From the NCBI GenBank assembly GCA_037381105.1, contig JARRRC010000001.1, positions 1-39,593 on the forward strand: a DNA stretch of 39,593 bases. Direction: 5' to 3'. A model generated the notes under the pieces. It was given only the letters and a program-made list of their open reading frames with translations, was not told where the DNA came from and searched no databases. Every line of letters begins with the position of its first letter. Position 1 is the stretch's first letter. The position numbers were made by a program, and so were the translations under genes. This DNA comes from Desulfobacterales bacterium. Lineage in GTDB: Bacteria > Desulfobacterota > Desulfobacteria > Desulfobacterales > UBA11574. Shown piece after piece: positions 3,994 through 38,644 of the stretch.

Positions 3994-5346
3994 ATGGAAA
4001 TCTTTTTAATAAATTATGATAACGGCAGCCGGTGGCCGGTCCTTCCGCAAAATCTTTTTCATTTATATTCGTGCATTGAAGATATCGGCGGGCATGATAT
4101 CTCCATTTTGGATTTTAATTTCTCAAGAATACCACCATATGAAGTTTTACACCAAGAAGAACCTGGCGTCGTCGCCCTCGGGTTTATCTCCGGGTACTGG
4201 CCGCACCAGGAAGCATTAAAGATAGCCGAAGTCATTAAAAACCACCCCAATAGAGATTCAATTCATTTTGTTATCGGCGGGCATGGGCCAAGCGCAGACC
4301 CCCTTTATTATTTAGAGAAACTCGGGGCAGATGCTGTTTTTACAGGATCTGCTGACAACAGCTTTCCATTGTGGCTCAAGAATGGAATGAAACCAGGGAT
4401 TTATGAGAGCCTCGGCTACAATATGGATGTATCTCAATATTATGGCGGCTTTGTTGGCTTTGATGTCTATAAAAGAATCCGCTTCCCCAACACAAAAGAA
4501 AACGAATTTGCTATCCAAATACTATCCGGGCGCGGCTGCCCATATAATTGTGCATTTTGCTTCCGCATGGGCTGCGACTTTTTGCGCTATGATGTCGCCA
4601 ATGTCATAAAAGATATCAAACGCTATGCCATAGAAGACGGCATCAGGCATTTCCAGTTTTCCGACGAGCTTTTAATGATATCCCCATCTATAACGAAAGA
4701 ATGGTGCCGTGCCCTCCAGGATCTGCAAGAGGAAATAGGCATCGATCTTTTCTTCGATTGCAACGGTCGCCTTAATGTCGCTGCAGGAGATCATGACGTG
4801 CTCAGGATGATGAAGGCAACCGGATTTCGCTATATTAATTACGGCTGCGAGTCCATGAGCCAGGAAGCCTTAAACAATATCAACAAGAAGCAGACAGTCG
4901 AACAGATCAGGGACGGTGTTGAGGCTACGATAAAAAATGGCATGACGCCGGGTCTTAATTTTATGTGGGGCAATCCAGGCGATGATTTTGGAAGCCTGAT
5001 GGATGCACAGAAATTTATAGTCGGTCATTCTGACGGCACGGAGCTTAGAACGATACGACCTGTCACGCCATACCCGGGAACAGAGCTTTTTAATATGCTT
5101 GTCGCAGAAGGAAGATGCACCGGGATTGATGATTTCTATGATCATCATGTTAACTCAGATCTTTTCTCTTATCATTTCATGGACGGCATCACGAACGAAG
5201 AAGCAAACCGAATGTTGTGCGGCGCGAATAAATATATATATGATAATTATATTGATAACAAGCAGTCGCGGCAATATGGGGAGATGCTTAAATTCTACTC
5301 AGGAGAAGTCGACCCATTGACTTTCAGAGGGTTTAGGGAGGTATAA
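3994..5346 (+). CDS. Radical SAM enzyme with an N-terminal B12-binding-like (class B) domain
   Basis: 450 aa. The CxxxCxxC cluster motif is in SGRGCPYNCAFCF. The N-terminal ~140 aa looks Rossmann-like (VVALGFISGYW...HFVIGGHGPS), as in cobalamin-type radical SAM proteins. Confidence 0.8.
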   Translation: MEIFLINYDNGSRWPVLPQNLFHLYSCIEDIGGHDISILDFNFSRIPPYEVLHQEEPGVVALGFISGYWPHQEALKIAEVIKNHPNRDSIHFVIGGHGPSADPLYYLEKLGADAVFTGSADNSFPLWLKNGMKPGIYESLGYNMDVSQYYGGFVGFDVYKRIRFPNTKENEFAIQILSGRGCPYNCAFCFRMGCDFLRYDVANVIKDIKRYAIEDGIRHFQFSDELLMISPSITKEWCRALQDLQEEIGIDLFFDCNGRLNVAAGDHDVLRMMKATGFRYINYGCESMSQEALNNINKKQTVEQIRDGVEATIKNGMTPGLNFMWGNPGDDFGSLMDAQKFIVGHSDGTELRTIRPVTPYPGTELFNMLVAEGRCTGIDDFYDHHVNSDLFSYHFMDGITNEEANRMLCGANKYIYDNYIDNKQSRQYGEMLKFYSGEVDPLTFRGFREV

Positions 5347-5349: not shown

Positions 5350-6168
5350 ATGTTGGGAATCAGCACGATAAACATAGAGTTGACAAGCCGCTGTAACAAG
5401 AAATGCCACATGTGCGGCCGCCGCAAGCTGGAGAAAGAAAACCTTGATTATGAATCAACGATGGGCGATATGGAGTGGAATACTTTTGCTAAAATAGTAG
5501 AACAGATTGAGGCCGGCATGGTCGTTCAACTCCACTGGAATGGGGAGCCGACACTTTCTAATTTTCTTTTTGCTGCAAGCTGTACTATAAGAGGCATGGG
5601 TGCATTCGCTTGCATGGATACAAATGGTCTTTTGTTGGGTAAAAAAGCTGATGACCTGGAACATTTCTCTTCCATAACAGTTTCCGTAATCCAGGGAGAT
5701 TCACAAGAGAATTATGATCGACAGATGGCGCAGATTAGGTTCTTTATGGAGACGAATAGATTTCTCGGTTTTTTCCCACAACAGAAAATAAACATCCGCG
5801 CCCTGGGAGAAATCCCGCTTTCTTTTTATCAACTCGCCGGAGAGTACGGGATCGATATCATCCCACGTATATTTCATGCGCCGGAAATGAGCAGAGACTA
5901 TCAAAAACAAGTAACCATGCCGGAAATAGGCGTTTGCCTCGACCTGCTGCATCACCCTGCCATAGACCGCCATGGGAACCTATTCCCTTGTGTGCGCTTT
6001 AACCCTGAAGGGCTAAACTGCCTCGGTAATGTCAATGAACACAGTATAGCAGACCTTTTATCCGGTGAGATCCGCACGGAAATGATCAGAAAACACTTTG
6101 AAGGTAGGCGCAACGAGGTCCCTCTTTGCAATACCTGCCACTATTGGGGTCTTCCGACAGCCCCTTAA
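5350..6168 (+). CDS. Small radical SAM enzyme with a C-terminal SPASM/twitch-like Cys cluster
   Basis: 272 aa. The N-terminal motif is ELTSRCNKKCHMCGR (CxxxCxxC). C-terminal cysteines occur in GVCLDLL, LFPCVRFNP, LNCLGNV and PLCNTCHYWG. The gap to the preceding radical SAM gene is 3 nt. Confidence 0.75.
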   Translation: MLGISTINIELTSRCNKKCHMCGRRKLEKENLDYESTMGDMEWNTFAKIVEQIEAGMVVQLHWNGEPTLSNFLFAASCTIRGMGAFACMDTNGLLLGKKADDLEHFSSITVSVIQGDSQENYDRQMAQIRFFMETNRFLGFFPQQKINIRALGEIPLSFYQLAGEYGIDIIPRIFHAPEMSRDYQKQVTMPEIGVCLDLLHHPAIDRHGNLFPCVRFNPEGLNCLGNVNEHSIADLLSGEIRTEMIRKHFEGRRNEVPLCNTCHYWGLPTAP

Positions 6169-6184
6169 AAAAGAAAGGACAACC

Positions 6185-6946
6185 ATGAACGCAGACACAG
6201 ACAAAGATCTTATCGAAAAATACAATCAGGTCTATGCGGACGGAGAAGAAAAATTCTGGACGTTTCTGCCGGTTGAAGAGCGCCTGGCTATACTTAGAAA
6301 TATTGATCTGCAGGGGAAAACGGTGCTTGAAATAGGCTGTGGCACTGGTGATTTCGCCGCCTGGATGGCATCCTGTGGGGCTAAATTGGTTGTTGCGGCT
6401 GACGCAAGCGGAGCTGCTATCCAAGCAGCCTGCGGGAAATATTGTTTGTCAAATCTTGTCTTTTATGCTTCAGAGCTTAAAATGCTCGGCAATCATAAGG
6501 AATATGATTTTATCGTCATGGTAGGAGTGCTTGAACACTTCAACAATCCAGACGACACAATAGGTTATATCGTCAAGAACATCATGTCCAAAGGTTCCCG
6601 CCTGGTGATAACCTGCCCCCTGTTTATAAATCCCCGTGGCTTTATCTGGGTCGCTCTTAAATATCTTTTCGATGCCCCTATGAGCCTTACCGACAAACAT
6701 GAAATAAGCCCCAACTGGATAAGAAAGATAGCCAAAAAATATGGCCTAAAAACAATCCACACGGAATCGGTTGATTTCAACTGGGGATGCGGGGATAAAA
6801 TGATTTTCGATTATTCCCAAAGACTTCCGAAGGTTTTTCCCGATATGGATGATGAAAAGATAAACAAGATGCTATCATGGCTTAAAGAAAATAAAGAATA
6901 TTTCCAGGGGCTGGGGGCGAACGCGCTTTATATATTGGGAAAGTGA
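6185..6946 (+). CDS. Class I SAM-dependent methyltransferase
   Basis: Motif I is VLEIGCGTGDFAAW, followed by VVAADAS and FIVMVGVLEHF. The ATG at 6185 is preceded by AAAGAAAGGA. The ORF-track start at 6098 would overlap the upstream gene. Confidence 0.8.
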   Translation: MNADTDKDLIEKYNQVYADGEEKFWTFLPVEERLAILRNIDLQGKTVLEIGCGTGDFAAWMASCGAKLVVAADASGAAIQAACGKYCLSNLVFYASELKMLGNHKEYDFIVMVGVLEHFNNPDDTIGYIVKNIMSKGSRLVITCPLFINPRGFIWVALKYLFDAPMSLTDKHEISPNWIRKIAKKYGLKTIHTESVDFNWGCGDKMIFDYSQRLPKVFPDMDDEKINKMLSWLKENKEYFQGLGANALYILGK

Positions 6947-10544: not shown

Positions 10545-10592
10545 GGTGATGCTATGTTAGTGTGCTGCTCTAAAACTATTAAATTCAAATTT

Positions 10593-10657
10593 TGCCCTGG
10601 GCGCATGGTTAATTTACCTACCTGATAGCTCATTAACATAGCACATGCGTCCCAGGG
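10593..10657. other. Long imperfect hairpin (14-bp outer stem with one bulge, plus a 6-bp inner stem) in the intergenic region upstream of the replication genes
   Basis: gccctgggcgcatg (10593..10606) pairs with catgcgTcccagggc (10643..10657). The inner pair is gttaat (10607..10612) with attaac (10631..10636). No T-run follows on either strand. Confidence 0.6.
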
Positions 10658-10667
10658 CACTACAAAA

Positions 10668-10844: not shown

Positions 10845-12130
10845 GTAAAATTCTTCCACACAACATAGAAGCAGAAGAAAGTATAATTTCATCCTGCTTG
10901 CTTGGGGGATATAAAGAACCATGCGCGACACTGGAACCATCTGATTTTTATAAAACAGCACACCAAAAAATATTCATTTCAATTCAATCTCTTGCATCAA
11001 CAAACAAGCCCATTGATTTAATCACTGTAATAGATGCGCTGACTCAAATAAGCAAATTCATTAATACAATTCCGGTAGCCAATTCAATCACCCATTATTG
11101 CAAAATCATAAAAGAAAAAGCATTAAAAAGGCAGATCATATCAAGATGTAACGATTTGATGCAGAATTGTTTTAACGATAATCACATCGGAGATCTGCTT
11201 GAAGAAGCAAAGTATATTTCCGAACTCGGCGAAACAGGGCTCATCAACAGGAAAAGAAAAGTTGATTTGTCTAACGTTTATGATGCCAAGCGCATGCTGC
11301 TTGAATATGATTTATATGTAAAGACCTTGAAAAACAATCGTTTCATTACTGGAATAGGAGAAATTGATAAGAGAATCAGGGGGGTCGCCGGTGGTGAAAC
11401 TATGTTCATAATCGCCAGGGCCGGAGCCTATAAAACTGCATTGCTGCAAAATCTATTAAGAAACTATGTTAATAACTCTGCCTGGGGGTCCGTATTCTTT
11501 TCGATAGAAATGCCTATTTCAAATATCGCGGAAAGATATCTGCAGCAATTTGATAGATCACCCGGATATCAAATTGAACAGCATTACGCCAATAACGATG
11601 AGGATTCAATCTCAGCCCTGGAGAAACGCTTCAGAAATGAACTTAAACGTTTCTTTGTCGTCCCAACCAAGGTCAGCCTATCAGATATAGAGCAATATAT
11701 TAAAATCATTGAAGATTCAAAACAATTAAAAATAGGCTTAATCGGTATCGATTACATGCAACTAATCGACGAGCCCGGGAAAGAATACGAGCAAATTACT
11801 AAAATTGCACGCGGCAGTAAAGACCTGGCAAAATATTTAAATATTCCAGTTATTGTTTTGTCGCAAATCAACCGGCAAGGCGAGGATGGAAACACAGAAG
11901 TTTCTCTTTCCATGGGGCGGGGTTCCGGGGCTATCGAGGAAGCCGCTGATTTCATGCTCGGACTCTGGAAAAATAACGAAGACCTGATTTGCAAGATACT
12001 AAAAAACCGTAAGGGTTCAGCGGGTTCGATGTGGAAACTTGAACTTGATTCAAATTGTTTTCTGATAGGCCAGAATTCCGTCAGGTATTCTAAAACAAAA
12101 ACCAAAAAATCAAATGGGTATTGTGATTAA
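10841..12130 (+). CDS. dnaB: Replicative DNA helicase, DnaB family
   Basis: The N-terminus LPHNIEAEESIISSCLLGG is the classic DnaB opening. The C-terminal RecA-like domain carries IIARAGAYKTALLQN (Walker A variant), FFSIEMP, LIGIDYMQLI (Walker B) and VIVLSQINRQ. Confidence 0.85.
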   Translation: MSKILPHNIEAEESIISSCLLGGYKEPCATLEPSDFYKTAHQKIFISIQSLASTNKPIDLITVIDALTQISKFINTIPVANSITHYCKIIKEKALKRQIISRCNDLMQNCFNDNHIGDLLEEAKYISELGETGLINRKRKVDLSNVYDAKRMLLEYDLYVKTLKNNRFITGIGEIDKRIRGVAGGETMFIIARAGAYKTALLQNLLRNYVNNSAWGSVFFSIEMPISNIAERYLQQFDRSPGYQIEQHYANNDEDSISALEKRFRNELKRFFVVPTKVSLSDIEQYIKIIEDSKQLKIGLIGIDYMQLIDEPGKEYEQITKIARGSKDLAKYLNIPVIVLSQINRQGEDGNTEVSLSMGRGSGAIEEAADFMLGLWKNNEDLICKILKNRKGSAGSMWKLELDSNCFLIGQNSVRYSKTKTKKSNGYCD

Positions 12131-12955
12131 ATGACTTATCGAAAATTTGATACCGGAACTTGGGTAGATCCATGGTTTGAAAATTTATCATTTAAAGCGA
12201 AACTCGGTTTTGTTTACTTTTGGACCAATGAGGTTTGTAATCCTGCCGGCATATATGAAATATCTGAAAAACGCATTTCTTTCGAGTTAGGATACCATAT
12301 CGATACCATATATTCGGAATTGGATACCAGAATTTTATGGGATAAAGACAAAAATATGGTTTGGGTAAAGAATTTTTTCAGACACCAATGCCAGAACTCT
12401 AAATTCGCTATCTCTGCTCTTAACTCTATTCGCTCGGATTCGCTTAAATTAAAGCTATTTATAGAATATAACCGACCCATTTTAGAGCACTACAAAATAG
12501 ACTTATCAGCATACCATATCGATACCATATCGATACCATATCCTACAGAACAGAACAGAACAGAACAGAACAGAACAGAAAAAGACTCTATGTCGAAACT
12601 CGATGAGTTTCAACTTTCAGAAAGCGACCGGGAAAATCAAATCCCAAAATGCCCTTATCAAAAAATCATAGATCTGTATCACGACATATTGCCTGAACTG
12701 CCTAAAATCAAAGTACTGTCCGAAGAACGCAAAAAACAATTAAAAGCGCGTTGGTTGTCCGGACTATCAAGCAATGGCTTTAAATCCTGGTCAATCGAAT
12801 ATTGGGAGGGTTTTTTCAAACACATTCGCGGAAGCCCCTTTCTTATGGGCCAGGTCGCTCCATCGCCAGGGCATAAACAGTTTATTGCTGATTTCGAGTG
12901 GGTTACTAAAAAATCAAGTTTTATCAAAATTATAGAGGGGAAATACCATGAATAG
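12131..12955 (+). CDS. Putative replication initiator or replisome organiser with internal iteron-like repeats
   Basis: The gene lies directly after dnaB (taaATG). The N-terminal domain contains WVDPWFENLSFKAKLGFVYFWTNEV. The C-terminal domain contains ILPELPKIKVLSEERKKQLKARW...SPFLMGQ...FIADFEWVTKKSSFIKIIEGKY. Both resemble prophage replication proteins as I recall them. The repeats fall in the inter-domain linker. Confidence 0.55.
   Translation: MTYRKFDTGTWVDPWFENLSFKAKLGFVYFWTNEVCNPAGIYEISEKRISFELGYHIDTIYSELDTRILWDKDKNMVWVKNFFRHQCQNSKFAISALNSIRSDSLKLKLFIEYNRPILEHYKIDLSAYHIDTISIPYPTEQNRTEQNRTEKDSMSKLDEFQLSESDRENQIPKCPYQKIIDLYHDILPELPKIKVLSEERKKQLKARWLSGLSSNGFKSWSIEYWEGFFKHIRGSPFLMGQVAPSPGHKQFIADFEWVTKKSSFIKIIEGKYHE
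12292..12313. repeat. Two tandem copies of the 11-mer ATACCATATCG (second copy 9/11)
   Basis: ataccatatcg ataccatatat, read directly from the sequence. Confidence 0.8.
12511..12542. repeat. Three tandem copies of the 11-mer ATACCATATCG (iteron-like)
   Basis: ataccatatcg ataccatatcg ataccatatc(c), read directly. This is the same 11-mer as at 12292. Confidence 0.85.
12546..12580. repeat. Pentanucleotide microsatellite (CAGAA)x7 inside the coding sequence
   Basis: cagaa occurs seven times in a row and encodes TEQNRTEQNRTE. The unit length is not a multiple of three. Confidence 0.95.
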
Positions 12956-13205
12956 CAAAGAACAAGGGCATTTAACCACCGAGGAAATATTGAATAATTT
13001 AGCCAATGCCATCCAGCAATATTTCAAAGACATGGGTATTGATACAGGGTTTGCGCTGCTAACGTTCGATTTCGGCGGTCCTGGAACCGGTAATTATGTT
13101 TCTAACGCCGACCTAGACGATATGATCCTCGCGCTCAGGGAAACCGCTGACAAGCTTGAAAGGCATCAAGATATACCGCGCACTAAAAACAAGCTTATGG
13201 TTTGA
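12948..13205 (+). CDS. Hypothetical protein
   Basis: 85-aa ORF with GAGGGG upstream. It overlaps the preceding gene by 8 nt. Confidence 0.5.
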   Translation: MNSKEQGHLTTEEILNNLANAIQQYFKDMGIDTGFALLTFDFGGPGTGNYVSNADLDDMILALRETADKLERHQDIPRTKNKLMV

Positions 13206-16077: not shown

Positions 16078-17566
16078 CTATAAAGCCCACAAAACGCTTT
16101 CCAGGTTCCACCACTCAAAGGCCTTTCACCGTGCGATCCGTGGCCCCAGGGGTTCCGGTAAATCAACCGGTTGTTGTGTTGAACTCGGAATAAAAGGCCA
16201 GCAGCAAGCGCCTTACCACGACCTTAGGCAGACACGCTTTGCAATCGTAAGAGACACCTACCGGGAGCTTGAAGACACCACCATCAAGACCTGGTGCCGC
16301 TGGTATCCAGAAGAATTCACCGGCCCAATTAACCGGGGCACTATGAGCCATACTATCCGCCAAAAACTTCCAGACGGTACTATGTGGGAAATGGAGGCTC
16401 TTTTCAGAGCTCTGGACCGGCCTGGTGATATCAAGAAAACCCTTTCGCTGGAACTTACAGGGGCCTATATCAACGAAGCCAAAAATACTCCTTTCGGCAT
16501 TATATCAGGCCTTGATGATGCTATCGGTAGGTTTCCTCCCAAGGATCTATCTGTCGGATTCAATGGCCCGACATGGGCAGGGATGATCCTCGATACCAAT
16601 AGTCCAGACGATGACCACTGGTGGTATAAGCTCGATGAACAATTTCGCAACGGGGAGTTAGACCCTAAGGCATGGCAGTTTTTTGATCAGCCTGGGGGGC
16701 TTATTGAGCGTGGCGGTAAGTTTTTTGCCAACCCCAAGGCTGAAAACCTGGAAAACCTACCGGATGATTTTTATCTCATGCGTATGGTAGGAAAGTCCAA
16801 GGACCACATCAGAGTCTATTACTGCAATCAGTACGGCTTTGTTATCGACGGCATGCCGGTGCACCCGGATTATGTTGACGCTACCCACTGCCCCGGCGAG
16901 GAAATCAATCCAGCCAAGGGAAGAGCTGTAATTGTGGGTATTGACTTTGGTCTTACACCGGCCGCTACCTTCGGCCAGCAGCTTGTAAACGGCCGCTGGG
17001 TTGTTTTTGATGAACTGGTGACCGAGCGCATGGGGGCCGATAACTTCGGGAGAGAGCTAAAACTAAAGATCCAGTCAGAATACCCGGATTTTAAGTTTAA
17101 ATTCTATGGCGATCCTGCCGGCGGAGATGATAGCCAGACAGATGAGCGCACTTGTTTCCAGGTTCTGGCCACCCACGGCATCAACGCAGAGCCTGCAGTC
17201 GTCAAATCCAAGGCACGCAATGACACGGAAATACGTCGCGGGGCACTCAGAGCGCCTCTTACTCGCATGATCGACGGCAAACCCGGTATATTGATCAGCC
17301 CGAAGTGTAAAGTCCTGAGGAAAGCCCTCTCAGGCGGTTTCTGTTTCAAGAAAAAACAGATTGTTGGATCTGAGCAATACCATGCCACCCCGGACAAAAA
17401 CAAATACAGCCATGTGGCTGAGGCCTGCGAATATATGTGCATAGGCGGCGGCGAGGGGGAACGGCTGATAGAAGCGCCGCCTCAAGATGTCGATACCTCG
17501 TTGTGGGATCTAAATATCGAAATAGACCATGGGGCCGGTGATGCAAGCCTCGGGTGGATGGGATAA
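16064..17566 (+). CDS. terL: Terminase large subunit
   Basis: Walker A is IRGPRGSGKSTG. The Walker B region is MILDTNSPDDDHWW. Nuclease-domain segments are VGIDFGLTPAA, GDPAGG and YSHVAEACEYM. GGGGAG lies before the ATG at 16064. Confidence 0.9.
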   Translation: MPKLSYKAHKTLSRFHHSKAFHRAIRGPRGSGKSTGCCVELGIKGQQQAPYHDLRQTRFAIVRDTYRELEDTTIKTWCRWYPEEFTGPINRGTMSHTIRQKLPDGTMWEMEALFRALDRPGDIKKTLSLELTGAYINEAKNTPFGIISGLDDAIGRFPPKDLSVGFNGPTWAGMILDTNSPDDDHWWYKLDEQFRNGELDPKAWQFFDQPGGLIERGGKFFANPKAENLENLPDDFYLMRMVGKSKDHIRVYYCNQYGFVIDGMPVHPDYVDATHCPGEEINPAKGRAVIVGIDFGLTPAATFGQQLVNGRWVVFDELVTERMGADNFGRELKLKIQSEYPDFKFKFYGDPAGGDDSQTDERTCFQVLATHGINAEPAVVKSKARNDTEIRRGALRAPLTRMIDGKPGILISPKCKVLRKALSGGFCFKKKQIVGSEQYHATPDKNKYSHVAEACEYMCIGGGEGERLIEAPPQDVDTSLWDLNIEIDHGAGDASLGWMG

Positions 17567-17568
17567 CC

Positions 17569-18039
17569 ATGGATTTAACCGGCATAGGAAGCGTGGCCGA
17601 TTTTGCCAAGAGCATCGTCGATCGTATTTTCCCGCCGTCTGCCGATCCGAATGAGCGGATGAAAGCCCAGGCTGAAATGGAACGGATGTTAGCCGAGCGC
17701 GAAAATGTCCTGGTCCAGGCAAAGGCCGCTGTTATGACCTCCGAGCTCACTCAGGACGACTCATACACCAAGCGCGGTCGACCGACGATCATTTATGCCG
17801 GTCTTGTTTTTATTTTCCTTGTGCATGTCCTGTTTCCGATTATCGCCTGGGCCGTTTTGATGTTTAAGGGATCCGGCGCGGCAATGCCCTCCCTGGCCCT
17901 TCCCTCTGAATTCTGGATGGCCTGGGGTGGGTGTTGCTCTCTTTATATCCTGGGGCGCAGTAAGGAAAAAAGCAGCGGCGAACTAGGCGGGATCTTTGGT
18001 AAAATTTACGATGTCGTAGGTGGTAAAAATAATGGCTAA
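17569..18039 (+). CDS. 3TM holin-like membrane protein (GTA_holin_3TM / DUF3154-like)
   Basis: The pattern is FAKSIVDRIFPPSADPNERMKAQAEMERML, then RGRPTIIYAGLVFIFLVHVLFPIIAWAV, then further TM segments. This matches the layout I recall for that family. Confidence 0.5.
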   Translation: MDLTGIGSVADFAKSIVDRIFPPSADPNERMKAQAEMERMLAERENVLVQAKAAVMTSELTQDDSYTKRGRPTIIYAGLVFIFLVHVLFPIIAWAVLMFKGSGAAMPSLALPSEFWMAWGGCCSLYILGRSKEKSSGELGGIFGKIYDVVGGKNNG

Positions 18040-20011
18040 AAAGATAAAAACCGTAAACGAAGTCGAACTGATCCAGCGGGCGAAAAAGAATTTCAAATTT
18101 GATTTTGACGCCTGTAAGGAAACCTACGACGAGATGATCGACGATTTGTATTTCGGCCAGGGGATTAACCAGTGGCCCGACAGCGTAAGGGTAGCCCGCG
18201 AAAACGATAAGAGGCCGTGCCTGCGCATAAATAAAATGCCCCAGTTTGTCGATCGTGTGCTCGGAGATTTAAGACAGTCCAGGCCAACGATTAAGGCCAG
18301 GCCGTTTGATGATAGAGCCGATAAAGACACAGCAGAGATCATCGGCGGCATAATCCGTAATATCGAGCAACAAAGCGATGCCGAAATAGTTTACGACTCA
18401 GGCGCCGAGGCCATGGTGCGCTGCGGCTATGGAGCCTGGCGCGTCCTCACTGATTATGTTTCCGACGAGTCTTTTGATCAGGAAATCCTGATCGACAGGA
18501 TTAAAAACCAATTTTCCGTTGTTTTTGATGCAAATGCCAAAAAATGGGATAAATCAGACGCCAGACGCGCTTATGTCTACGAGGACATGCCGAGGGATGT
18601 TTTCAAGCAGCGCTGGCCGAAAAAAGATCCCTGTGATTTTTCTGCGGGCGGCAAGGACCAGGGCGACTGGATTCGAGAAGATACTGTGCGGGTCATGGAA
18701 TACTTTGAGCGGGATATTACCTCGCACAAGCTGTATTTGATTTTGCCGGACGGACAACAAGACACTAAAACTGTAACCGAGCTGCCCGCAGATTATCAAT
18801 ATGCAATCATAAAAGAGCGCACGATACAGGATCCCACAATCACATGGTACAGGATCAGCGGTAAAGAAATCCTTGAAGGACCTATCGAGCTTAAAGGGCA
18901 ATACATCCCGCTTATTCCCTGTTACGGCAAGGAAACCAATATCGAGGGAAAATCTTATTACAACGGCATTATCCGGCACGCCAAGGATTCTCAGCGGCTT
19001 TACAACTATTTCAGGTCCTACGATGCTGAAACAATAGCCCTGGCGCCCAAGGCGCCATGGATCATGACCGCCAAAATGCTCGGGACCTACAAGGCGCAGT
19101 GGGACCAAGCCAACGAACGCAATTTTTCATATCTGCTGTACGACCCAGACCCCAATGCGCCCGGGGTCAAGCCTGAACGCAATATCCCCCAAATGACAAA
19201 TCAGGCCATAATTCAGCAGGTCATGATTGCTGACCAAGAGCTGCACGACACAACCGGCCTGCAGCTTGCCAGCCTCGGCAAGAAATCAAACGAGCAAAGC
19301 GGAGCTGCTATCCAGGCCAGGGCCAAAGAGGGCGATATAGGACAATTTACCTACATTGACAATGTGATGCGGGCGATTAAGCACACAGCCAAAATTATTG
19401 TTGATCTGATCCCCTACATTTACGACACGGCCAGAGTACAGCGCATTATCGGCGAGGACGGCGAGTCGAAAACGGTAAAGATTAACGAGCAGTTCGAGGA
19501 CGAGAAAACAAAAGAATCACGCATATTTGATATGACCATGGGAAAATATGACGTTATTGCCTCGGTCGGCCCGAGCTACCAGACACAGCGCCAGGAAGCT
19601 CTGGCTGCAATGATAGATTTTGCTAAGATCCTCGATAACCAGCAGCGGGCAATCATCTCAGATCAGATTGCAGCCACCTCCGACTGGCACGGAGCCGATA
19701 GGATAGCCAAGCGCCTAAAGCGTACCATTCCGCCCAATCTTTTGGGTCCGGAAGATGCCGAGGAAGACCCGCAACCGCCTGCACCGCCAAACGAACAGGA
19801 GATTAAAATGCAGGCCATGGCGGATGCCAAGATGGAGGTTGAACAGGAAACCGCTGAAGTCGAGCTGGCTATTAAAAAAGCCGAGCTTGAAGAGAAAAAG
19901 GCCAAAGCCGCTATTGCCGAAGCCGAGGCAGCAATAAAAGAAGCCGAGGCGACAGATGTTGCCAGAGGCTTCCAGCGTCCCGATAATTCCAGCGCAAGGG
20001 CTACAGCGTAA
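18032..20011 (+). CDS. Portal protein (P22-like)
   Basis: 660 aa following TerL. It contains GQGINQWPDSVRVARENDKRPCLRINKMPQFVDRVLGDLRQSRPTIKARP and an Ala/Glu-rich coiled-coil C-terminal barrel, as in P22-type portals. Confidence 0.8.
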   Translation: MAKKIKTVNEVELIQRAKKNFKFDFDACKETYDEMIDDLYFGQGINQWPDSVRVARENDKRPCLRINKMPQFVDRVLGDLRQSRPTIKARPFDDRADKDTAEIIGGIIRNIEQQSDAEIVYDSGAEAMVRCGYGAWRVLTDYVSDESFDQEILIDRIKNQFSVVFDANAKKWDKSDARRAYVYEDMPRDVFKQRWPKKDPCDFSAGGKDQGDWIREDTVRVMEYFERDITSHKLYLILPDGQQDTKTVTELPADYQYAIIKERTIQDPTITWYRISGKEILEGPIELKGQYIPLIPCYGKETNIEGKSYYNGIIRHAKDSQRLYNYFRSYDAETIALAPKAPWIMTAKMLGTYKAQWDQANERNFSYLLYDPDPNAPGVKPERNIPQMTNQAIIQQVMIADQELHDTTGLQLASLGKKSNEQSGAAIQARAKEGDIGQFTYIDNVMRAIKHTAKIIVDLIPYIYDTARVQRIIGEDGESKTVKINEQFEDEKTKESRIFDMTMGKYDVIASVGPSYQTQRQEALAAMIDFAKILDNQQRAIISDQIAATSDWHGADRIAKRLKRTIPPNLLGPEDAEEDPQPPAPPNEQEIKMQAMADAKMEVEQETAEVELAIKKAELEEKKAKAAIAEAEAAIKEAEATDVARGFQRPDNSSARATA

Positions 20012-20595
20012 TGCATATCGTTAAAAACACCATAGACAGGCCTCTAAAAAACCATGATTTTTTGTTGATCACGGGAGACGGCAAGCCTTTACCCCGAGAT
20101 CTTGAAACGTTTATGGATCTCGGCATTGACCATGATGTAATGTGCATTGGCCGGTCAATCCAGATATACCCCGGGCTTGTTGATCATTATGCTGATGTTG
20201 ATGCCGATGCCGGCAAGTGGGTTGCTGAAAACCTGATCGAAAATAATCCGGACAAGGGCTACCCGATCAGGCATACCCTCGGCGATGTTGCCTGGTTTGA
20301 TGTTTGTTGGGAAATCGAAGATTGCCTAATTCCATCCGAGGATATTCTGTGGCACGGATCAACGGCGCTGTTTTGTGTTCTGATAGGAATTGCAATGGAA
20401 TATAAGCAGATTGTGCTTGCAGGCTGCCCTATGGACTCCAAGGGGCATTGGTATTTCCCGGATGAAACTTATGGCCCCAAATGGACGTTTGAAAGCTATC
20501 AATCCTGGTTTGAGTTTGCCGCAACAGAGGATGCTAAAAAAGTATGCTCTTTAAGCGGCTACACGAAACAACTTTTAGGCGGGTTCAATGGATAG
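20011..20595 (+). CDS. CstII/Maf (DUF115, MptE-like)-type putative nonulosonic-acid transferase, paralog 1
   Basis: DFLLITGDGKPL, DVMCIGRS and GSTALFCVLIGIAMEYKQIVLAGCPMDSKGHWY parallel C. jejuni CstII segments VIIAGNGPSL, DVFRCNQFY and ITSGVYMCAVAIALGYKEIYLSGIDFY (recalled from memory). Confidence 0.5.
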   Translation: MHIVKNTIDRPLKNHDFLLITGDGKPLPRDLETFMDLGIDHDVMCIGRSIQIYPGLVDHYADVDADAGKWVAENLIENNPDKGYPIRHTLGDVAWFDVCWEIEDCLIPSEDILWHGSTALFCVLIGIAMEYKQIVLAGCPMDSKGHWYFPDETYGPKWTFESYQSWFEFAATEDAKKVCSLSGYTKQLLGGFNG

Positions 20596-21247
20596 CAACT
20601 TCTTAAGCACGGTACAGCCGTACAGAATCGATCCAAAACGCTGGTGGGTTGATATCCCGGTAAAGGACGCCTCTGAGTTAAAGCCCGACACAGGCAATGA
20701 TGTCCTGTTAATCGTCGGAGACGGCCGGGACGTGCTCGCCGATCTGATTAATTTCTGGGGCATACAGGAGCCCGCCGATATCATGTGCATGAATTTTTCC
20801 CCTAAAATTATCCCCGAGGGGGTGCCCATCCAGCACTATATTGCAGGGGATAGCCACACGCCGAGCATGCAAAAAATAGCGGGACAACTGCCCTCCGGTG
20901 TTTTGCGGCATTGCTGGAACCAGAACAGCACGAATTTTGATATCCGGTGGGGGCGCAATACGTCCAAGGGCTGGACCGGAACAACCGCCAACCTCGGCGT
21001 TAAAATAGGCATTGCTTTAGGCTATATGAAAATAGTCTTGGCCGGCTGTCCTATGGATACCAGCGGCAACTGGTACCGCGACAGCCTGCCTGAAAACGAT
21101 GTAAAACGCGGTAAGGATCACACCGCGCACTTGTGGAAGTGGACCGAAATAGCATCCCGGCCGATAGGTCGGTTTATCCGCTCGATGAGCGGGAACACCG
21201 CCATGTTGTTTGGCGAGCCTGACAAGGAGTGGCTGCAAAATGTTTAA
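20588..21247 (+). CDS. CstII/Maf (DUF115, MptE-like)-type putative nonulosonic-acid transferase, paralog 2
   Basis: VLLIVGDGRDV, DIMCMNFS and GTTANLGVKIGIALGYMKIVLAGCPMDTSGNWY show clear paralogy to the preceding ORF and use the same motif set. Confidence 0.5.
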   Translation: MDSNFLSTVQPYRIDPKRWWVDIPVKDASELKPDTGNDVLLIVGDGRDVLADLINFWGIQEPADIMCMNFSPKIIPEGVPIQHYIAGDSHTPSMQKIAGQLPSGVLRHCWNQNSTNFDIRWGRNTSKGWTGTTANLGVKIGIALGYMKIVLAGCPMDTSGNWYRDSLPENDVKRGKDHTAHLWKWTEIASRPIGRFIRSMSGNTAMLFGEPDKEWLQNV

Positions 21248-21317: not shown

Positions 21318-22199
21318 ATGGAAAACGGATTATTAACAGAGGGTTTTATGGAAGGCGCTGAACTTGACATGGACGAACAGGGCAACCTGATCGAGCCAAC
21401 CGGGGATGAGCCGGAAAAACCGGACCAGACCGAGCCGGTAACATCAGAACCAGATGAACCGGAAGTAACAGGTACGCAAGAAGGTGAGCAACAGCCTGAA
21501 AATGTTGATGAAGAACCTGAAATTACCGCAACTCAAATGCGCGAGCAAATGAAAAAAATGCGGTCGCAGATTAACAGCCTGCATCGCAGATTGAGAAAGA
21601 CCAGCAAGGCACAGCCGGCTATTAAGGCCCCAGAGCCGCTGGACAAGTCAACAGCTCCCAAGATGGCGGATTTCGAAACCATCGAAGACTACGAAACTGC
21701 CAAAACCAATTGGGAGATCGACCAGCGTGTAAATGACGGCATCCGGAAAGCCACACAGCACATTGATTCGGAAGCGCAGCTTAAAGAAGAGCGCGCTGAA
21801 TTCGTTAACGATACTGTTTCTTTAGGAAAAACGATTTACAATGATTTCGATAAAGTTGTGCTCCAGGATAATGTGCCTATCACCATGGAGATGATAGACA
21901 CGGTTCGCACCATGGACGACAACGAAAACGTTACACCGGCCGATCTGCTCTATTACCTGGGCAAGAACCCGGCCGAGGCCACGGCATGTTCACGCATGAG
22001 CGGCGCCCAATTAATAAGGGCTCTGGCAAAGATTGAAACCAAGCTTGAAGGCATTAAGTCTCAAGCTACACCGAAACCAACAAAAACAATTTCCGACGCC
22101 CCGCCCCCTATAAAGCCAACGGACTCGACTGTGATCGTTCATAAAGATCCGACCAAAATGACCCAGGCTGAATACGAGGCATGGCGTATGGGAGGATAA
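21318..22199 (+). CDS. Putative scaffolding protein
   Basis: The gene lies between the portal and coat genes. It has a highly acidic N-terminus and a helical, charged, low-complexity body. The call rests on position and composition only. Confidence 0.45.
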   Translation: MENGLLTEGFMEGAELDMDEQGNLIEPTGDEPEKPDQTEPVTSEPDEPEVTGTQEGEQQPENVDEEPEITATQMREQMKKMRSQINSLHRRLRKTSKAQPAIKAPEPLDKSTAPKMADFETIEDYETAKTNWEIDQRVNDGIRKATQHIDSEAQLKEERAEFVNDTVSLGKTIYNDFDKVVLQDNVPITMEMIDTVRTMDDNENVTPADLLYYLGKNPAEATACSRMSGAQLIRALAKIETKLEGIKSQATPKPTKTISDAPPPIKPTDSTVIVHKDPTKMTQAEYEAWRMGG

Positions 22200-22209: not shown

Positions 22210-23442
22210 ATGGGATCAACTCACACTTTGCTGACCCCGACTGTCATAGCCAAAGAAGCGCTCATGCGTTTAAAAAATAATCTGGTGATGGGCAATCGGG
22301 TCCACCGCAATTACGAAATGGAATTCAAGAAAATCGGCGGCACGGTTACCATCCGCAAGCCGGTCAAATTCACCGTAACAACGGGCCGCACCCGGGCCAC
22401 GTCAACCATCACGGAAAACAGCATCACGTTGCAGGTCGCAACCCAGAAACACGTTTCCTGGTCGTTTAACAGCGCAGACCTGACCCTGACCATCGATCAG
22501 TACAACGAGCGTTACATCATGGGCGGAACCCAGGTGCTGGCTAATGCCATCGACGCTGATTTGTGCGATCTTTACAAGGACGTTTATAACGAGGTCTGGG
22601 AATCCACCGGATTCGTCAACCCGGAGACGTTCATGGTCCTGGGAAAAGCCGGCCAGAGGCTTGACGAGGAAGCATCCCCCCAGGAAGACCGTTGCATCGT
22701 TTTTAACCCGGCCGCTCACTGGTCCATGGCAAACGCCATGAAGGGCTTGTATGTGACCGATGTTGCCGGTGCTGCCGTTAAAAAGGGCTACTTGGCCAGA
22801 ATCGCCAACATGGAAATCTATATGGACCAGAACGTTAAAGTCCATACAACCGGCGTTTTCCATGATACCGGTTCGACGGCTGCTATCCTGGTCGGCACGA
22901 CCTCACCGGCAAACCTTGCCACAAGCCTGGAACTGATCCACTTCCGCGTGGTTTCCACGGTCGCCCTGAAACAAGGCGATGTTTTCACCATTGCCGGTGT
23001 TTACGCTGTCAATCCTGTTTCCGGTCAATCCACAGGAGCGCTGCGGCAATTTGTTGTCACAGCGGACGCCTCCGCAGCGGCTACGGCTACCAGTGCGATT
23101 GTAACGGCCCATATCGATCCGCAGATCATCAACACGGGGCCTTACAAGACAGTGGACACCACCCCGGCCGCTGGTGCTGCTGTGACCATCGTCGGCACCC
23201 AAAACGAGCCTTACCCGGTCAATCTGGCATTCCACAAGAACGCCTTTGCGCTGGTGATGGTGCCGCTGGTAACGCCCAAGAATGTCTGGGGTTCTACAGC
23301 GGTAGACAGCGGATATTCGATCCGTGTGCTGAAAGCCTACAGCATCGATCTGGACGATGAAGTCTGTCGTCTCGACGTGCTTTACGGCACCAAAACCCTC
23401 TATCCCGAGCTCGCCTGCAGAATCAGGGGCGCGGAAGGATAA
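22210..23442 (+). CDS. Major capsid protein, P22 coat-like family
   Basis: The N-terminus is LLTPTVIAKEALMRLKNNLVMGNRVHRNYEMEFKKIGGTVTIRKP. The C-terminus is NLAFHKNAFALVMVPL...CRLDVLYGTKTLYPELACRI. Both fit the P22/BPP-1-type coat pattern. A stem-loop follows the gene. Confidence 0.8.
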   Translation: MGSTHTLLTPTVIAKEALMRLKNNLVMGNRVHRNYEMEFKKIGGTVTIRKPVKFTVTTGRTRATSTITENSITLQVATQKHVSWSFNSADLTLTIDQYNERYIMGGTQVLANAIDADLCDLYKDVYNEVWESTGFVNPETFMVLGKAGQRLDEEASPQEDRCIVFNPAAHWSMANAMKGLYVTDVAGAAVKKGYLARIANMEIYMDQNVKVHTTGVFHDTGSTAAILVGTTSPANLATSLELIHFRVVSTVALKQGDVFTIAGVYAVNPVSGQSTGALRQFVVTADASAAATATSAIVTAHIDPQIINTGPYKTVDTTPAAGAAVTIVGTQNEPYPVNLAFHKNAFALVMVPLVTPKNVWGSTAVDSGYSIRVLKAYSIDLDDEVCRLDVLYGTKTLYPELACRIRGAEG

Positions 23443-27796: not shown

Positions 27797-28021
27797 ATGG
27801 CTATTATAAAATCCATAAGCGTTCCAAAAACAACGGATGTAAAAGAACTCAGGAAATGGTTTGAGCAAATATCAGAAAAATTCTCGTATCAAAGCTATGC
27901 CGGAGATCCTACGTCCAACATCCTGCCACGCTGGACAGGAGATCTGTGTTTGGATACGACCAATAACGATTGGTATAAGGCAACAGGAACGGCGGCCGCG
28001 GACTGGAAAGCCTTGACATGA
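27797..28021 (+). CDS. Hypothetical small virion-module protein
   Basis: The ATG at 27797 lies 2 nt after the upstream stop. The ORF track begins at a TTG at 27791. Confidence 0.45.
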   Translation: MAIIKSISVPKTTDVKELRKWFEQISEKFSYQSYAGDPTSNILPRWTGDLCLDTTNNDWYKATGTAAADWKALT

Positions 28022-36151: not shown

Positions 36152-36475
36152 TTAATTCTTTTCCTCAACAAACTCCAAGCCATAGCCATTCGGATCATTT
36201 ACAAACTGTACCTTGCAACCGCTCGGCGCAACAAAATAATAATGATCCTTGTTTATTTCGTCCACCGTAAAAGCAAGATGCAATGAAAAACCGTCCTGGA
36301 ATTCGATGCATACACCCTGGGCGTTTTTCATCTTGACCCAATTAATGGTCCGCCCGTTGATAACATCCATGCCGGATTCGGTAATTGAGAAACCTAATAC
36401 GCTCGTATAATACGAGATTGTTTCTTCAAGATTTTGCGCGGGGATTCCGATGTGCCGGAAATTGATAACTTTCAT
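36152..36475 (-). CDS. VOC (glyoxalase/bleomycin-resistance/dioxygenase-fold) family protein
   Basis: FRHIGIPAQNLEETISYYTSVLGFSI...HLAF...DPNGYGLEFVE is a typical single VOC module. It overlaps the aminotransferase stop by 4 nt. Confidence 0.65.
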   Translation of the reverse strand: MKVINFRHIGIPAQNLEETISYYTSVLGFSITESGMDVINGRTINWVKMKNAQGVCIEFQDGFSLHLAFTVDEINKDHYYFVAPSGCKVQFVNDPNGYGLEFVEEKN

Positions 36476-37515
36476 CCGAGAACCTTTCTGATAATGGCTA
36501 TGCCTTTGTTAAGCTCTTCCATCGTGATATTCAATGGCGGCCCTATTTTCACGGTCTGGGCTTTCGTGTGGACAACAAGCAGCCCGGCTGCACAAAGATC
36601 GACAACGGCCTTGTCGGCATCGTCCGTGCTTTCAAAATAGATGCTTGCAACCATGCCTTTTCCCTGCACCGGCCTTGTCAGTTTGCAAAGCCCTTCTTGC
36701 AAGTGTCGGCCCATTTTCTCGGCATTTTTTACCAAATTAAAGTTTTCAAATTGGTCGACAACTTCAAGGCCAGCGGCGCAGGCTAATGGATTCCAGCCAT
36801 TGGTGGACGATAAATCCATCATGGGGTTATTGATTAAAACCGAGGGTCCAAGGATAGCCGATGCCGGGAACCCATTGCACATCGCCTTGCCCACGCAGAC
36901 AATATCCGGATTAAGATCATAATAATGCTGATACCCGAAAAGCTTGCCCGTCCTTCCAAATCCTGCCTGAATTTCATCGGCGATGAGGATAAGATCGAAT
37001 GTTTTAACCAAGTGCTTGATGCGCTCAATTGTTTTATCCTTATGGAATTGGCACGTAAGGGCATTGTAGGGCTCGAAAATAAGACACCCGGTCTTGTCCC
37101 CTGCTGTCTGGTTGCGCCAGTCAACCTCCCTGCCTGCGGCGATCTGGGCGCCCAACGTTTTACCATGGAAAGCATGCTCAAGACCCCAGATCCCGTTTTT
37201 GCCGGTATAACGCCGCGCTATCTTGTATGCGGCTTCCACGGCCTCGGTTCCGCTTGAAAACATCTGTGCCGCTTCAAACCCGGTAAATGCGCACAGCCTG
37301 TCGTGATATTCTCGCTTGACGGGATGGCCGAACTCATAACAGTGCATGAACTTTTCGGCTTGTTCGCATATCGCGTTGCCAACATCGATATTTCCCATGC
37401 CCAGGCTTGACGCGAAAATGCCGCTTGTAAAATCGATAAGCCCCTTACCGTCTGTGGTATAAACGGTTGAATCTTTGACAAAATCGATCTCTATATCGTG
37501 GATGCTGTTTATCAT
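36472..37515 (-). CDS. PLP-dependent class-III aminotransferase (short form, 347 aa)
   Basis: The motifs are FSSGTEAVEAAYKIAR, HAFHGKT, LILIADEIQAGFGRTGKLFGYQHY and PDIVCVGKAMCNGFP (Schiff-base Lys). Confidence 0.8.
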   Translation of the reverse strand: MINSIHDIEIDFVKDSTVYTTDGKGLIDFTSGIFASSLGMGNIDVGNAICEQAEKFMHCYEFGHPVKREYHDRLCAFTGFEAAQMFSSGTEAVEAAYKIARRYTGKNGIWGLEHAFHGKTLGAQIAAGREVDWRNQTAGDKTGCLIFEPYNALTCQFHKDKTIERIKHLVKTFDLILIADEIQAGFGRTGKLFGYQHYYDLNPDIVCVGKAMCNGFPASAILGPSVLINNPMMDLSSTNGWNPLACAAGLEVVDQFENFNLVKNAEKMGRHLQEGLCKLTRPVQGKGMVASIYFESTDDADKAVVDLCAAGLLVVHTKAQTVKIGPPLNITMEELNKGIAIIRKVLG

Positions 37516-37535: not shown

Positions 37536-37913
37536 TTAAATTAAATTTATGCCGCTTGTTTCCATGTCTTTACATATTTTGTGCACCATCTGTTGGTGCA
37601 TTTCTATCAAGACTTGCGCGGTTGCTGGAATCGTAGGGATAATTCGATCATCCAAATAATAGCTGTATTTGTAATCTATATCGGAGAAACAGGTCGAACC
37701 TACACAATGGAAACCAATATCATCTTTATTTTTAAAACCACGCACAGTCCCTACTTTCCTCAATGTATAAGTTTCATCTTGAACAGCGATCGTATTAAGT
37801 TCCTCACCGTCAACAACATCATTATGCAGGGGGATTTTGTGTTCGAGTTCCATAATCCTTAATTTTAGTTTTTGTATTTCCAATTCAAGAGCGCATTCTC
37901 TAAGCGTCTTCAT
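37536..37913 (-). CDS. Hypothetical protein inside the sugar cluster
   Basis: 125-aa ORF that overlaps the cytidylyltransferase stop by 4 nt. I recognised no family. Confidence 0.5.
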   Translation of the reverse strand: MKTLRECALELEIQKLKLRIMELEHKIPLHNDVVDGEELNTIAVQDETYTLRKVGTVRGFKNKDDIGFHCVGSTCFSDIDYKYSYYLDDRIIPTIPATAQVLIEMHQQMVHKICKDMETSGINLI

Positions 37914-38644
37914 GGTTTAAACACTATCCTTTCTTCTTTGCGCCGTGTGGCGTATTCGAATTCGGCTATTTTAAGATCGTGAAGCGTGTCTATTTCTATC
38001 GTGGGTTCGGTGATGTGCGCCATGACGTTTTCGCCGAACAAGGCGCCCGTGCGGACAATTTTTGGGCGGATGATATCGACAACTCCGTTTGGGTGATATG
38101 TTTTCGGATAAAAATGATTTGGCAGGTTCGCGCCGTCAACCGCATCAGCCATTGCAAAAATTCCTTTTAGCAGGCATTCGGCTTTAATTGTCATGCACTT
38201 ATAAGCGCTTTCGCTCATTTCATGCACGGAACGCAGCCCGGTCGCCTCGGGCACGGCAATCATTTTCTGGATGGCTTCTCCTATATCTTCGACGCGTCTA
38301 AACGGTGTCGTGGGCCGCAGGTAAACAACAAGACTGATGTCGCCCTCATCCACCCCCCTATTGAGGAAGTCTACAATAACGTCACGGTCGGTTGCATCGT
38401 CCGTTGCTGCGTGTTTGCGGCGGCGCATTGGGATCACCCTGTTATAAAAATTGTCCTGGTCATACATGCGGGCAACGTTTAATATTTCATCGTCTTCTGA
38501 TGAAATATAAATTCTGTCGATTGCCTCCACAATCGATGCGCTTGCTATTGACCATTCAAGCAGGGTGGAGGGGCCGATTTTTTGCAGGTTTTTGCGGGGG
38601 ACTCTTTTGCTTTGTCCTCGGGCCGGGATAAGGGCGACTATCAT
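37910..38644 (-). CDS. CMP-ulosonic acid (acylneuraminate-type) cytidylyltransferase, NeuA/PseF/LegF/KdsB-like
   Basis: The N-terminus is MIVALIPARGQSKRVPRKNLQKIGPSTLLEWSI...IDRIYISSEDDEIL. The IPARGxSKRxPxKN signature marks the CTP_transf_3 family. Confidence 0.75.
   Translation of the reverse strand: MIVALIPARGQSKRVPRKNLQKIGPSTLLEWSIASASIVEAIDRIYISSEDDEILNVARMYDQDNFYNRVIPMRRRKHAATDDATDRDVIVDFLNRGVDEGDISLVVYLRPTTPFRRVEDIGEAIQKMIAVPEATGLRSVHEMSESAYKCMTIKAECLLKGIFAMADAVDGANLPNHFYPKTYHPNGVVDIIRPKIVRTGALFGENVMAHITEPTIEIDTLHDLKIAEFEYATRRKEERIVFKP

Follow-up and report, generated by a model that had tools for sequence, protein, structure and literature searches.

Why would the head-assembly operon of a phage carry, between the genes for its portal and its scaffolding protein, two adjacent genes whose products look like small relatives of sugar-acid transferases? 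This question is raised by two open reading frames (ORFs), called ORF1 and ORF2, on contig JARRRC010000001.1 (assembly GCA_037381105.1), whose 39,593 nucleotides constitute the stretch of DNA analyzed herein and are referred to below as the window. A preliminary description of this DNA, made from the sequence alone, interpreted the pair as tandem CstII/Maf (DUF115)-like transferases through which a phage might decorate its own particle with a nonulosonic-type sugar. Our analysis places both proteins, by profile and model comparisons, in the corresponding fold superfamily. Moreover, because the same genome encodes enzymes for sugar synthesis and activation, the phage probably attaches a sialic-acid-like sugar to something, and possibly to its own particle.

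Both genes are present as the preliminary description reported them, and their translations contain all of the motifs quoted there: LLITGDGKPL in ORF1 and LLIVGDGRDV in ORF2, then DVMCIGRS and DIMCMNFS, and finally VLIGIAMEYKQIVLAGCPMDSKGHWY and VKIGIALGYMKIVLAGCPMDTSGNWY, respectively. The portal stop codon and the ORF1 start codon have one base in common (TAATG), and the end of ORF1 overlaps the beginning of ORF2 by 8 nucleotides, which together indicate translational coupling. The two sequences are 32% identical over 187 residues by BLASTP (E=8e-21), and alignment of their orthologue families by hhalign yields a probability of 100% (E=6.8e-41), such that their relationship as tandem paralogs is far beyond chance. 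Only these two copies of the family occur in the window. Elsewhere, two homologs (P0292 and P0340) are single polypeptides with two family domains. The overlapping reading frames, the co-conservation of the genes, and these two-domain polypeptides suggest that the ORF1 and ORF2 domains work together. For example, the proteins could form a pseudo-dimer, or they could be two transferases that serve successive steps or different acceptors.

The family to which the pair belongs was delineated by an exhaustive HMMER search with a joint profile, which recovered 1738 representatives at 50% clustering. From these, 66 distant relatives were sampled, of which 21 match PF01973 (best E=2.4e-7) and three touch the Pfam model CST-I below its threshold. 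When searched against the sequences in the Protein Data Bank (PDB), the broad family profile matches CstII (E=1.6e-4), CstI (E=1.7e-3), and another sialyltransferase of lipooligosaccharide (LOS) that uses cytidine monophosphate (CMP)-activated N-acetylneuraminic acid (Neu5Ac) (E=9e-3), in each case on the block ‘G-T-S-G...A..LGY..I.L.G’ of only ~35-45 residues. The same search returned no MptE chain at E<=10. Narrow profiles made from close orthologues yield noise or sub-threshold CstII matches (E~0.7 for the ORF1-family profile alone), and the link to CstII is significant only with distant members added to the profile. With hhalign, the family aligns to CstII from R129 to Y162 with a probability of 88% (E=3e-6).

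A second line of sequence evidence involves seven viral proteins, six of which exceed the PF01973 gathering score. The family profile (A4) aligns with these proteins by hhalign over 136 columns, starting at the Gly-rich N-terminal strand and reaching the G-x-D region, with a probability of 97.5% (E=5.6e-12), and a narrower family profile (A3) gives 84.5%. These bridging proteins in turn match CstII over residues 2-191 (E=6e-7) and the Maf structure 5mu5 (E=2.8e-4), but MptE only at E=0.014. The CstII motifs that the preliminary description had quoted for comparison (VIIAGNGPSL, DVFRCNQFY, and AVAIALGYKEIYLSGIDFY) are correct when checked against PDB entry 2wqq_A.

Structure comparisons lead to the same group of proteins. 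AlphaFold2 produced models of both proteins with a predicted template modeling (TM) score of 0.90 and high local confidence (Table 1). The best PDB matches found by Foldseek for the ORF2 model are MptE/HPPK entry 8sd5 at the top (E=3.7e-3, TM 0.42), CstI (2p56), ST6GALNAC2, a thiamin pyrophosphokinase (TPK), CstII, and ST8SiaIII. For the ORF1 model, the only high-probability PDB matches are Maf 5mu5 (0.97, TMq 0.48) and TPKs. Generic Rossmann-type short-chain dehydrogenases/reductases and epimerases dominate the ORF1 list but have poor TM scores, and this identity was discounted in favor of the high-probability Maf and TPK matches. In the viral structure library BFVD, where 11 matches fall at E<=1e-3, the ORF2 model retrieves uncharacterised family members and then MptE-like phage proteins, the GT29 protein of ChoanoV1, a DUF115 protein, and sialyltransferases of herpes- and poxviruses. 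The comparison of models proposed in the preliminary description thus finds CstI/CstII and Maf among the specific matches, albeit with marginal scores.

Because the independent sequence and structure evidence fully agree, we consider it established, at the level of profiles and predicted models, that the pair are divergent members of the DUF115 (PF01973)/GT42 fold superfamily. Their family is best regarded as a large, divergent, and previously unannotated new subfamily of this fold, with minimal, single-domain members of ~200 amino acids (aa). A prohead protease with Ser, His, and Asp residues had also been considered from the gene position, and was ruled out since all profile and fold evidence leads to DUF115/GT42.

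It might be asked whether these small proteins are enzymes at all. Sixteen alignment columns are invariant in both paralog families (ORF2 numbering): D45, D52, H83, D88, H108, W121, W129, G131, G153, P155, D157, W162, W185, S201, G202, and T204. Because each paralog keeps this full set, both look catalytically competent. Among the 66 distant relatives sampled, D52, N69, H83, H108, S133, G153, P155, S201, and G202 are nearly invariant. Secondary structure assignment of the ORF2 model with DSSP locates the conserved residues just after strands 39-43, 64-68, 83-86, 106-109, and 148-152, or at the N-terminus of helix 133-143. In Rossmann-like sheets, this edge is where nucleotides usually bind, and two of the invariant residues, H83 and H108, may serve as general bases. 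Furthermore, T132/T133 align with CstII T131/S132, the conserved Y163 of ORF2 and Y148 of ORF1 align with CstII Y162, and D157 aligns with both the second Asp of the PF01973 motif ‘G-x-D-L-D’ and CstII Y156.

One alternative is that ORF1 and ORF2 retain a degenerate enzyme fold but have no catalytic activity, and instead serve an assembly or structural role, for example as a chaperone or as an accessory factor of the procapsid or portal. The interval between portal and scaffold genes is the site of head accessory genes in many phages, the canonical nucleotide-binding motifs are degenerate, and neither protein has a direct Pfam match. However, the invariant residues are mostly polar or Gly and cluster at the active-site edge in two paralog families that are only ~32% identical, and the polar residues D52, N69, H83, H108, S133, and S201 are nearly invariant among the distant relatives sampled. 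In addition, a structural role leaves the conserved linkage to a CMP-sugar pathway, described below, unexplained. We therefore consider this explanation very improbable.

If the proteins are transferases, what might they transfer? Gene content was surveyed by scanning ORFs of at least 90 aa against Pfam, and the window was found to encode a NeuB-family nonulosonic-acid synthase, a PseF-like cytidylyltransferase, and several potential tailoring enzymes (Table 1). The presence of the synthase and the cytidylyltransferase in the same genome much strengthens the earlier idea of a sugar-acid donor. The nearest NCBIfam models for the synthase are NeuB_NnaB (212 bits) and PseI (159 bits), with both scores below the equivalog cut-offs. 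Because its alignment covers only positions 2-274 of these ~329-position models, the phage NeuB lacks the C-terminal SAF/antifreeze-like domain, and this short form may indicate an unusual substrate. All phage NeuB homologues in our NeuB alignment (A5) are similarly short. The gene set as a whole is no canonical pathway for Neu5Ac, pseudaminic acid (Pse), or legionaminic acid (Leg), and suggests a novel tailored sugar acid. Sugar hypermodification of DNA was set aside as another use for such genes; the scan revealed a C5 methylase but no context of a hydroxymethylase or DNA glycosyltransferase. Overall, we lean moderately toward the view that the pair, taken as one enzymatic whole, is a CMP-nonulosonic-acid-dependent transferase that uses a sugar made and activated by the phage.

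Table 1. Features of the window discussed in the text, with coordinates in window numbering. Orthologue-family counts are metagenome clusters at 90% identity; pLDDT, predicted local distance difference test of the AlphaFold2 (AF2) model; PLP, pyridoxal phosphate; SAM, S-adenosylmethionine; TM, transmembrane.
Feature	Coordinates	Strand	Evidence and remarks
ORF1, 194 aa, minimal DUF115/GT42-fold protein (paralog A)	20011..20595	+	Orthologue family of 140 clusters; AF2 pLDDT 92.6
ORF2, 219 aa, minimal DUF115/GT42-fold protein (paralog B)	20588..21247	+	Orthologue family of 228 clusters; AF2 pLDDT 91.3
NeuB-family nonulosonic-acid synthase, 280 aa	35302..36144	+	PF03102 E=1.2e-62
CMP-sugar-acid synthetase (cytidylyltransferase, PseF/NeuA/KdsB family)	37910..38644	-	PF02348 CTP_transf_3 E=1.6e-15; nearest NCBIfam model PseF, 81 bits
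Class-III (PLP) aminotransferase	36472..37515	-	PF00202 E=5.7e-62
Glyoxalase/VOC-fold protein	36152..36475	-	PF00903 E=1.3e-7
B12-binding radical-SAM enzyme (probable C-methylase type)	3994..5346	+	PF04055 + PF02310
Radical-SAM/SPASM enzyme	5350..6168	+	PF13186 + PF04055
Class-I SAM methyltransferase	6098..6946	+	PF13489 E=1.2e-14
P22-type portal protein, directly 5' of ORF1	18020..20011	+	PF16510 E=1.4e-174; phrog_156 E=8e-126
Scaffolding protein, directly 3' of ORF2	21318..22199	+	phrog_8865 E=1.6e-31
P22-type major coat protein	22210..23442	+	PF11651 E=1.1e-49; phrog_283 E=1e-76; candidate acceptor by inference only
GTA_holin_3TM-type three-TM protein, between large terminase and portal	17554-18039	+	PF11351
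C5 cytosine DNA methylase	9306-10178		Within low-GC stretch
DnaB-type helicase	10841-12130		Within low-GC stretch

Related phage loci provide further information on this gene arrangement. The preliminary description regarded the pair as an insertion that interrupts the head operon, a view that we do not retain, since the order portal-ORF1-ORF2-scaffold-coat is kept in 27 of 27 close relatives and is thus a core feature of the clade. Genes for the radical-SAM, SPASM, and methyltransferase proteins lie between NeuB and the terminase in all nine loci with at least ~7 kb of upstream sequence. NeuB itself is present in eight of the nine, with the ninth locus ending at a contig end. The cytidylyltransferase and aminotransferase genes, with NeuB adjoining, are found in all four loci that reach far enough (L044, L050, L057, and L088), and in L057 a glyoxalase-like gene sits between the aminotransferase and NeuB. 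The relatives thereby display a co-directional block of ~13 kb, with genes for CTP-transferase, aminotransferase, (glyoxalase-like), NeuB, B12-binding radical-SAM, SPASM, methyltransferase, small terminase, large terminase, portal, ORF1, ORF2, scaffold, and coat proteins.

Single-sequence queries with NeuB or the cytidylyltransferase gave almost nothing. With an alignment, NeuB relatives were recovered from 441 IMG/VR contigs, and 14 of 82 sampled loci encode a member of the family or of PF01973 no more than 10 kb from NeuB, including eight outside this clade. Seven of nine ORFs near NeuB outside the clade match PF01973, six of them above its gathering score. At the distant locus L033, a family member is located directly upstream of scaffold and coat genes.

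Several variations on the arrangement were also observed. In some relatives, homing endonucleases (GIY-YIG, Endonuclease_7) and 0.3-5 kb of extra genes are inserted among ORF1, ORF2, and scaffold (L002 10680-11249, L003 3106-3696, and L001 2004-7193), and because of these inserts, adjacency and translational coupling are not always required of the pair. A third, more divergent DUF115-like paralog occurs in the tail/ejection-protein module of relatives (L001 14624-15385, L002 19887-20627, L016 16741-17517, and L022 7247-7981; also L012 and L020). The tail module of L004 (13532-14964), like that of L005, carries an Acetyltransf_1 gene and a radical-SAM gene (Zn_ribbon_HMPTM + Radical_SAM), which may encode further modification enzymes. 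Finally, the fusion protein P0367 (locus L124 1137-2279) joins a family member to an N-terminal domain of ~200 aa with the sequence ‘LVLDLDV’, which is reminiscent of GT-A DxD glycosyltransferases; this domain has no significant match among PDB sequences.

A number of observations weigh against the assignment of transferase function. First, ORF1 and ORF2 match no model in Pfam, PHROGs, or NCBIfam, and the direct Pfam scan of both gave nothing at E<=10, including PF01973 and CST-I. Likewise, 50 close ORF2 orthologues scanned individually against Pfam give only spurious weak matches and no PF01973, and the 228 and 140 orthologue clusters from metagenomes have no precomputed Pfam domain. The CstII/Maf/DUF115-like assignment made in the preliminary description is therefore upheld by way of distant members, CstII/CstI profiles, viral PF01973 homology, and Foldseek, whereas the profile searches it proposed yield no direct match to the MptE-like or CST-I models for either ORF. 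Second, the Foldseek matches to solved structures are marginal (E 4e-3 to 6e-2, TM 0.42-0.49). Third, the distant family loci L029-L041 have no NeuB within +/-10 kb, so the association between the pair and NeuB has been demonstrated for this clade alone, and common descent could account for part of it.

Important motifs also deviate from those of known transferases. The G-[NT]-G-P-S (G-x-G-P-S) loop is replaced by an invariant G-D-G that is not followed by P-S. In the block ‘I-V-L-A-G-C-P-M-D’ (G-C-P-[ML]-D), the position of CstII D154, which corresponds to the first Asp of the PF01973 motif, is taken by an invariant Pro. The Maf protein of Clostridium botulinum (CbMaf) has two essential residues, S334 and D357, that are 23 residues apart (bioRxiv 10.1101/2020.06.03.131540). 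This spacing is common to CbMaf S334-D357, CstII T131-D154, and phage T132-P155, which would place the phage Pro at the essential acid position of Maf (CbMaf D357 or MmMaf E415), with an Asp two residues later. Moreover, the alignments to CstII end before the catalytic His188, for which no counterpart was mapped, and the H178 and H181 residues that are invariant in ORF2 have no equivalent His in ORF1. Chiu et al. in 2004 reportedly identified His188 of CstII as the general base, and Tyr156 and Tyr162 as phosphate-binding residues.

An invariant set so rich in Asp and His would also be compatible with a metal-dependent kinase or a pyrophosphokinase of the MptE/TPK type. One possibility is that the proteins are ATP-dependent (pyro)phosphotransferases resembling MptE or TPK, or other small-molecule enzymes of the same fold, that act in the sugar pathway or on an unrelated metabolite. 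This would accord with the top-ranked PDB match of ORF2 and the TPK matches of both paralogs, with the name MptE-like borne by the Pfam family that distant members match, with the resemblance of D45, D52, D88, D157, H83, and H108 to a metal/phosphate site, and with the altered CMP-binding motifs. However, the family sequences reach CstII, CstI, and the LOS sialyltransferase rather than MptE, and the bridging viral proteins are likewise closer to CstII and Maf. Among the ORFs of at least 90 aa scanned in the window, none is a pterin, folate, or thiamin gene. The sugar pathway, in contrast, requires a transferase for its CMP-sugar, and the scan of these ORFs revealed no further glycosyltransferase candidate. 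Thus, neither the sequence neighborhood nor the genome context is that of a true MptE, which the preliminary description had named as the identity that would overturn its proposal, and we judge a phosphotransferase function distinctly unlikely.

If the pair indeed transfers a sugar acid, the identity of the acceptor becomes the next question. The location of the genes inside the late head-assembly operon, and their coupling to the portal gene, would make virion or procapsid proteins the most likely acceptors. The head-operon position, the conservation of the pair as a clade core, and the paralog in the tail module all favor such an acceptor, which, by analogy with known protein-modifying relatives, we propose only tentatively.

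A different possibility is that a CMP-nonulosonic-acid transferase modifies a host acceptor, such as lipopolysaccharide or O-antigen, capsule, flagellin, pilin, or S-layer, and thereby blocks superinfection or the adsorption of progeny to debris, in a manner like seroconversion. The evidence from enzyme family and donor pathway applies equally to this explanation, CstI/II and related GT42 enzymes act on LOS, and the phage nonulosonic-acid functions known so far act on host capsule sugars (PMC12053666, PMC6586298). However, the genes examined here sit in a late head operon with translational coupling to portal, the clade conserves the pair as a core feature rather than a variable moron, some relatives have a third paralog in the tail module, and no integrase is present among the window ORFs scanned. 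Genes for surface conversion are typically located close to integration or tail-fibre regions, with early or lysogenic expression, which also counts against a host-surface role. For these reasons, we view modification of the host surface as rather unlikely.

We speculate that modification of the particle would proceed as follows. A nonulosonic acid would be made by the NeuB-type synthase and tailored by the aminotransferase, the two radical-SAM enzymes, and the methyltransferase, whose genes are all present. The PseF-like cytidylyltransferase, also encoded in the window, would then convert this compound into a CMP-sugar. The transferase fold is predicted to be a modified GT-A/Rossmann domain in which the CMP-activated ulosonic acid would be bound at the C-terminal edge of the beta-sheet. 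ORF1 and ORF2, probably as a heterodimer or a two-step unit, would move the sugar acid to its acceptor. In the last and least certain step, the acceptors would most likely be Ser/Thr residues of virion or procapsid proteins (coat, scaffold, and portal), by analogy with the action of Maf on flagellin. A widespread clade of P22-like podoviruses would then ‘sialylate’ its own capsid or procapsid during assembly, with the pair sometimes joined by the third paralog of the tail module, a scenario that we offer as conceivable rather than expected.

Several known systems can be compared with this proposal. Maf proteins (PF01973), of which those from M. magneticum (PDB 5mu5), C. botulinum, and G. kaustophilus were considered, O-glycosylate Ser/Thr residues of flagellin with CMP-activated Neu5Ac, Kdo, Pse, or Leg (bioRxiv 10.1101/2020.06.03.131540; PMC11339370). 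They are ~600 aa in length, have three domains in which N- and C-terminal domains flank Maf_flag10, and are already used for protein glyco-engineering (PMC11339370). The phage pair is like Maf in its fold group, as seen in the ORF1 match to 5mu5, in profile-level PF01973 homology, in its genomic linkage to NeuB/PseF-type genes, and in retaining a Ser/Thr at the N-terminus of the central helix that by spacing corresponds to the essential CbMaf S334. The chemistry, in which a CMP-ulosonic acid donates to protein Ser/Thr, would by analogy also be shared. Unlike Maf, the phage proteins consist of the central domain only and form a tandem paralog pair, they have G-D-G in place of G-x-G-P-S and Pro at the essential Asp/Glu site, and their genes are in a head operon.

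Similarities to the GT42 enzymes CstII and CstI of Campylobacter jejuni (PDB 1ro7 and 2p56) include the motif order, the profile and Foldseek matches, and the counterparts of T131/S132 and Y162. However, significant similarity to CstII is confined to the short block noted above, both His188 and the lid domain are without a mapped counterpart, and D154 and Y156 are replaced by Pro and Asp, respectively. CstII is a homotetramer of one gene product, and its substrate is the galactose or sialic acid of LOS rather than protein. MptE, the archaeal 6-hydroxymethyl-7,8-dihydropterin pyrophosphokinase (8sd5), is itself in PF01973 and, like TPKs, has a fold of the same group. Unlike these enzymes, which the phage profile does not match at the sequence level, the pair has a genomic context of CMP-nonulosonic acid and not of pterin or thiamin.

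Precedent for capsid glycosylation by phage-encoded enzymes exists in mycobacteriophages. The enzymes described by Freeman and colleagues are said to have other glycosyltransferase folds and to use ordinary nucleotide-hexose donors. Phage Che8 and related cluster F1 phages use their own glycosyltransferases to glycosylate their capsid proteins (Freeman et al. 2023, Cell Host Microbe 31:1216, as cited in PMC11256854). Unlike the genes studied here, the glycosyltransferase genes of Che8-type phages are placed near the genome 3' end and not in the head operon by PMC11256854, which mentions no nonulosonic acid or phage sugar-acid pathway.

Full-text literature searches returned no report of a phage virion with nonulosonic acid, in agreement with the novelty claimed in the preliminary description. 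They likewise retrieved no account of DUF115 proteins encoded in the head module of a phage, or of the cassette described here. When 50,697 GenBank phage records were searched by tblastn, ORF1, ORF2, and the third-paralog type had no match, which leaves no cultured model phage at hand. The corresponding search with NeuB gave three weak matches and no cultured phage. What is new here is the presence of minimal, paired, transferase-like genes of the DUF115/GT42 fold embedded in a phage head operon, and virion ‘sialylation’ would, if confirmed, also be new.

If the proposal is true, this would be the first phage virion decorated with a sialic-acid-type sugar, and the enzymes would be the smallest known protein nonulosonic-acid transferases. 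They would be part of a self-contained ~13-kb cassette to ‘make, activate, transfer’ that is fused to the head-assembly operon. Particle stability could be affected, host range masked, receptor-mimicking decoys evaded, and the interaction with mucus or grazers altered. A function would be provided for a family of 1738 representatives that has no Pfam, PHROG, or NCBIfam model, and proteins of ~200 aa would define a minimal DUF115/GT42 core useful for protein glyco-engineering. The unusual genes for SAF-less NeuB, class-III aminotransferase, B12-binding radical-SAM enzyme, SPASM enzyme, and methyltransferase would then point to a novel nonulosonic-acid derivative.

The genome that carries these genes has several other characteristics. 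An exact 119-bp terminal direct repeat (window 1-119 and 39475-39593) indicates that the contig is a complete, circularly assembled phage genome of ~39.47 kb. The phage is uncultured, and its P22-like late operon includes a portal and a coat protein of P22 type. The order of late genes is small and large terminase, the GTA-holin-like protein with three TM segments, portal, ORF1, ORF2, scaffold, coat, and adaptor and head-closure proteins. The contig was deposited inside a metagenome-assembled genome labeled ‘Desulfobacterales’, and sister genomes were binned as Dehalococcoidia (L126) and Adiutricales (P0073). Because these bins differ, host labels derived from binning are unreliable. A scan of a genome collection gave a single match, another mis-binned phage contig, and no prophage or host clue.

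Three features outside the proposed cassette are unusual. The interval between the large terminase and portal genes (17554-18039) is an unusual site for a holin-like gene. In the tail module, an ORF of 168 aa (28018-28524, forward strand) resembles the C-terminal domain of citrate synthase or citryl-CoA lyase (PF00285, E=3e-7), which is odd for a structural region. Lastly, the guanine-plus-cytosine (GC) content of window positions 8000-13000, where the C5 methylase and helicase genes are located, is 0.37-0.40, compared with ~0.50 elsewhere.

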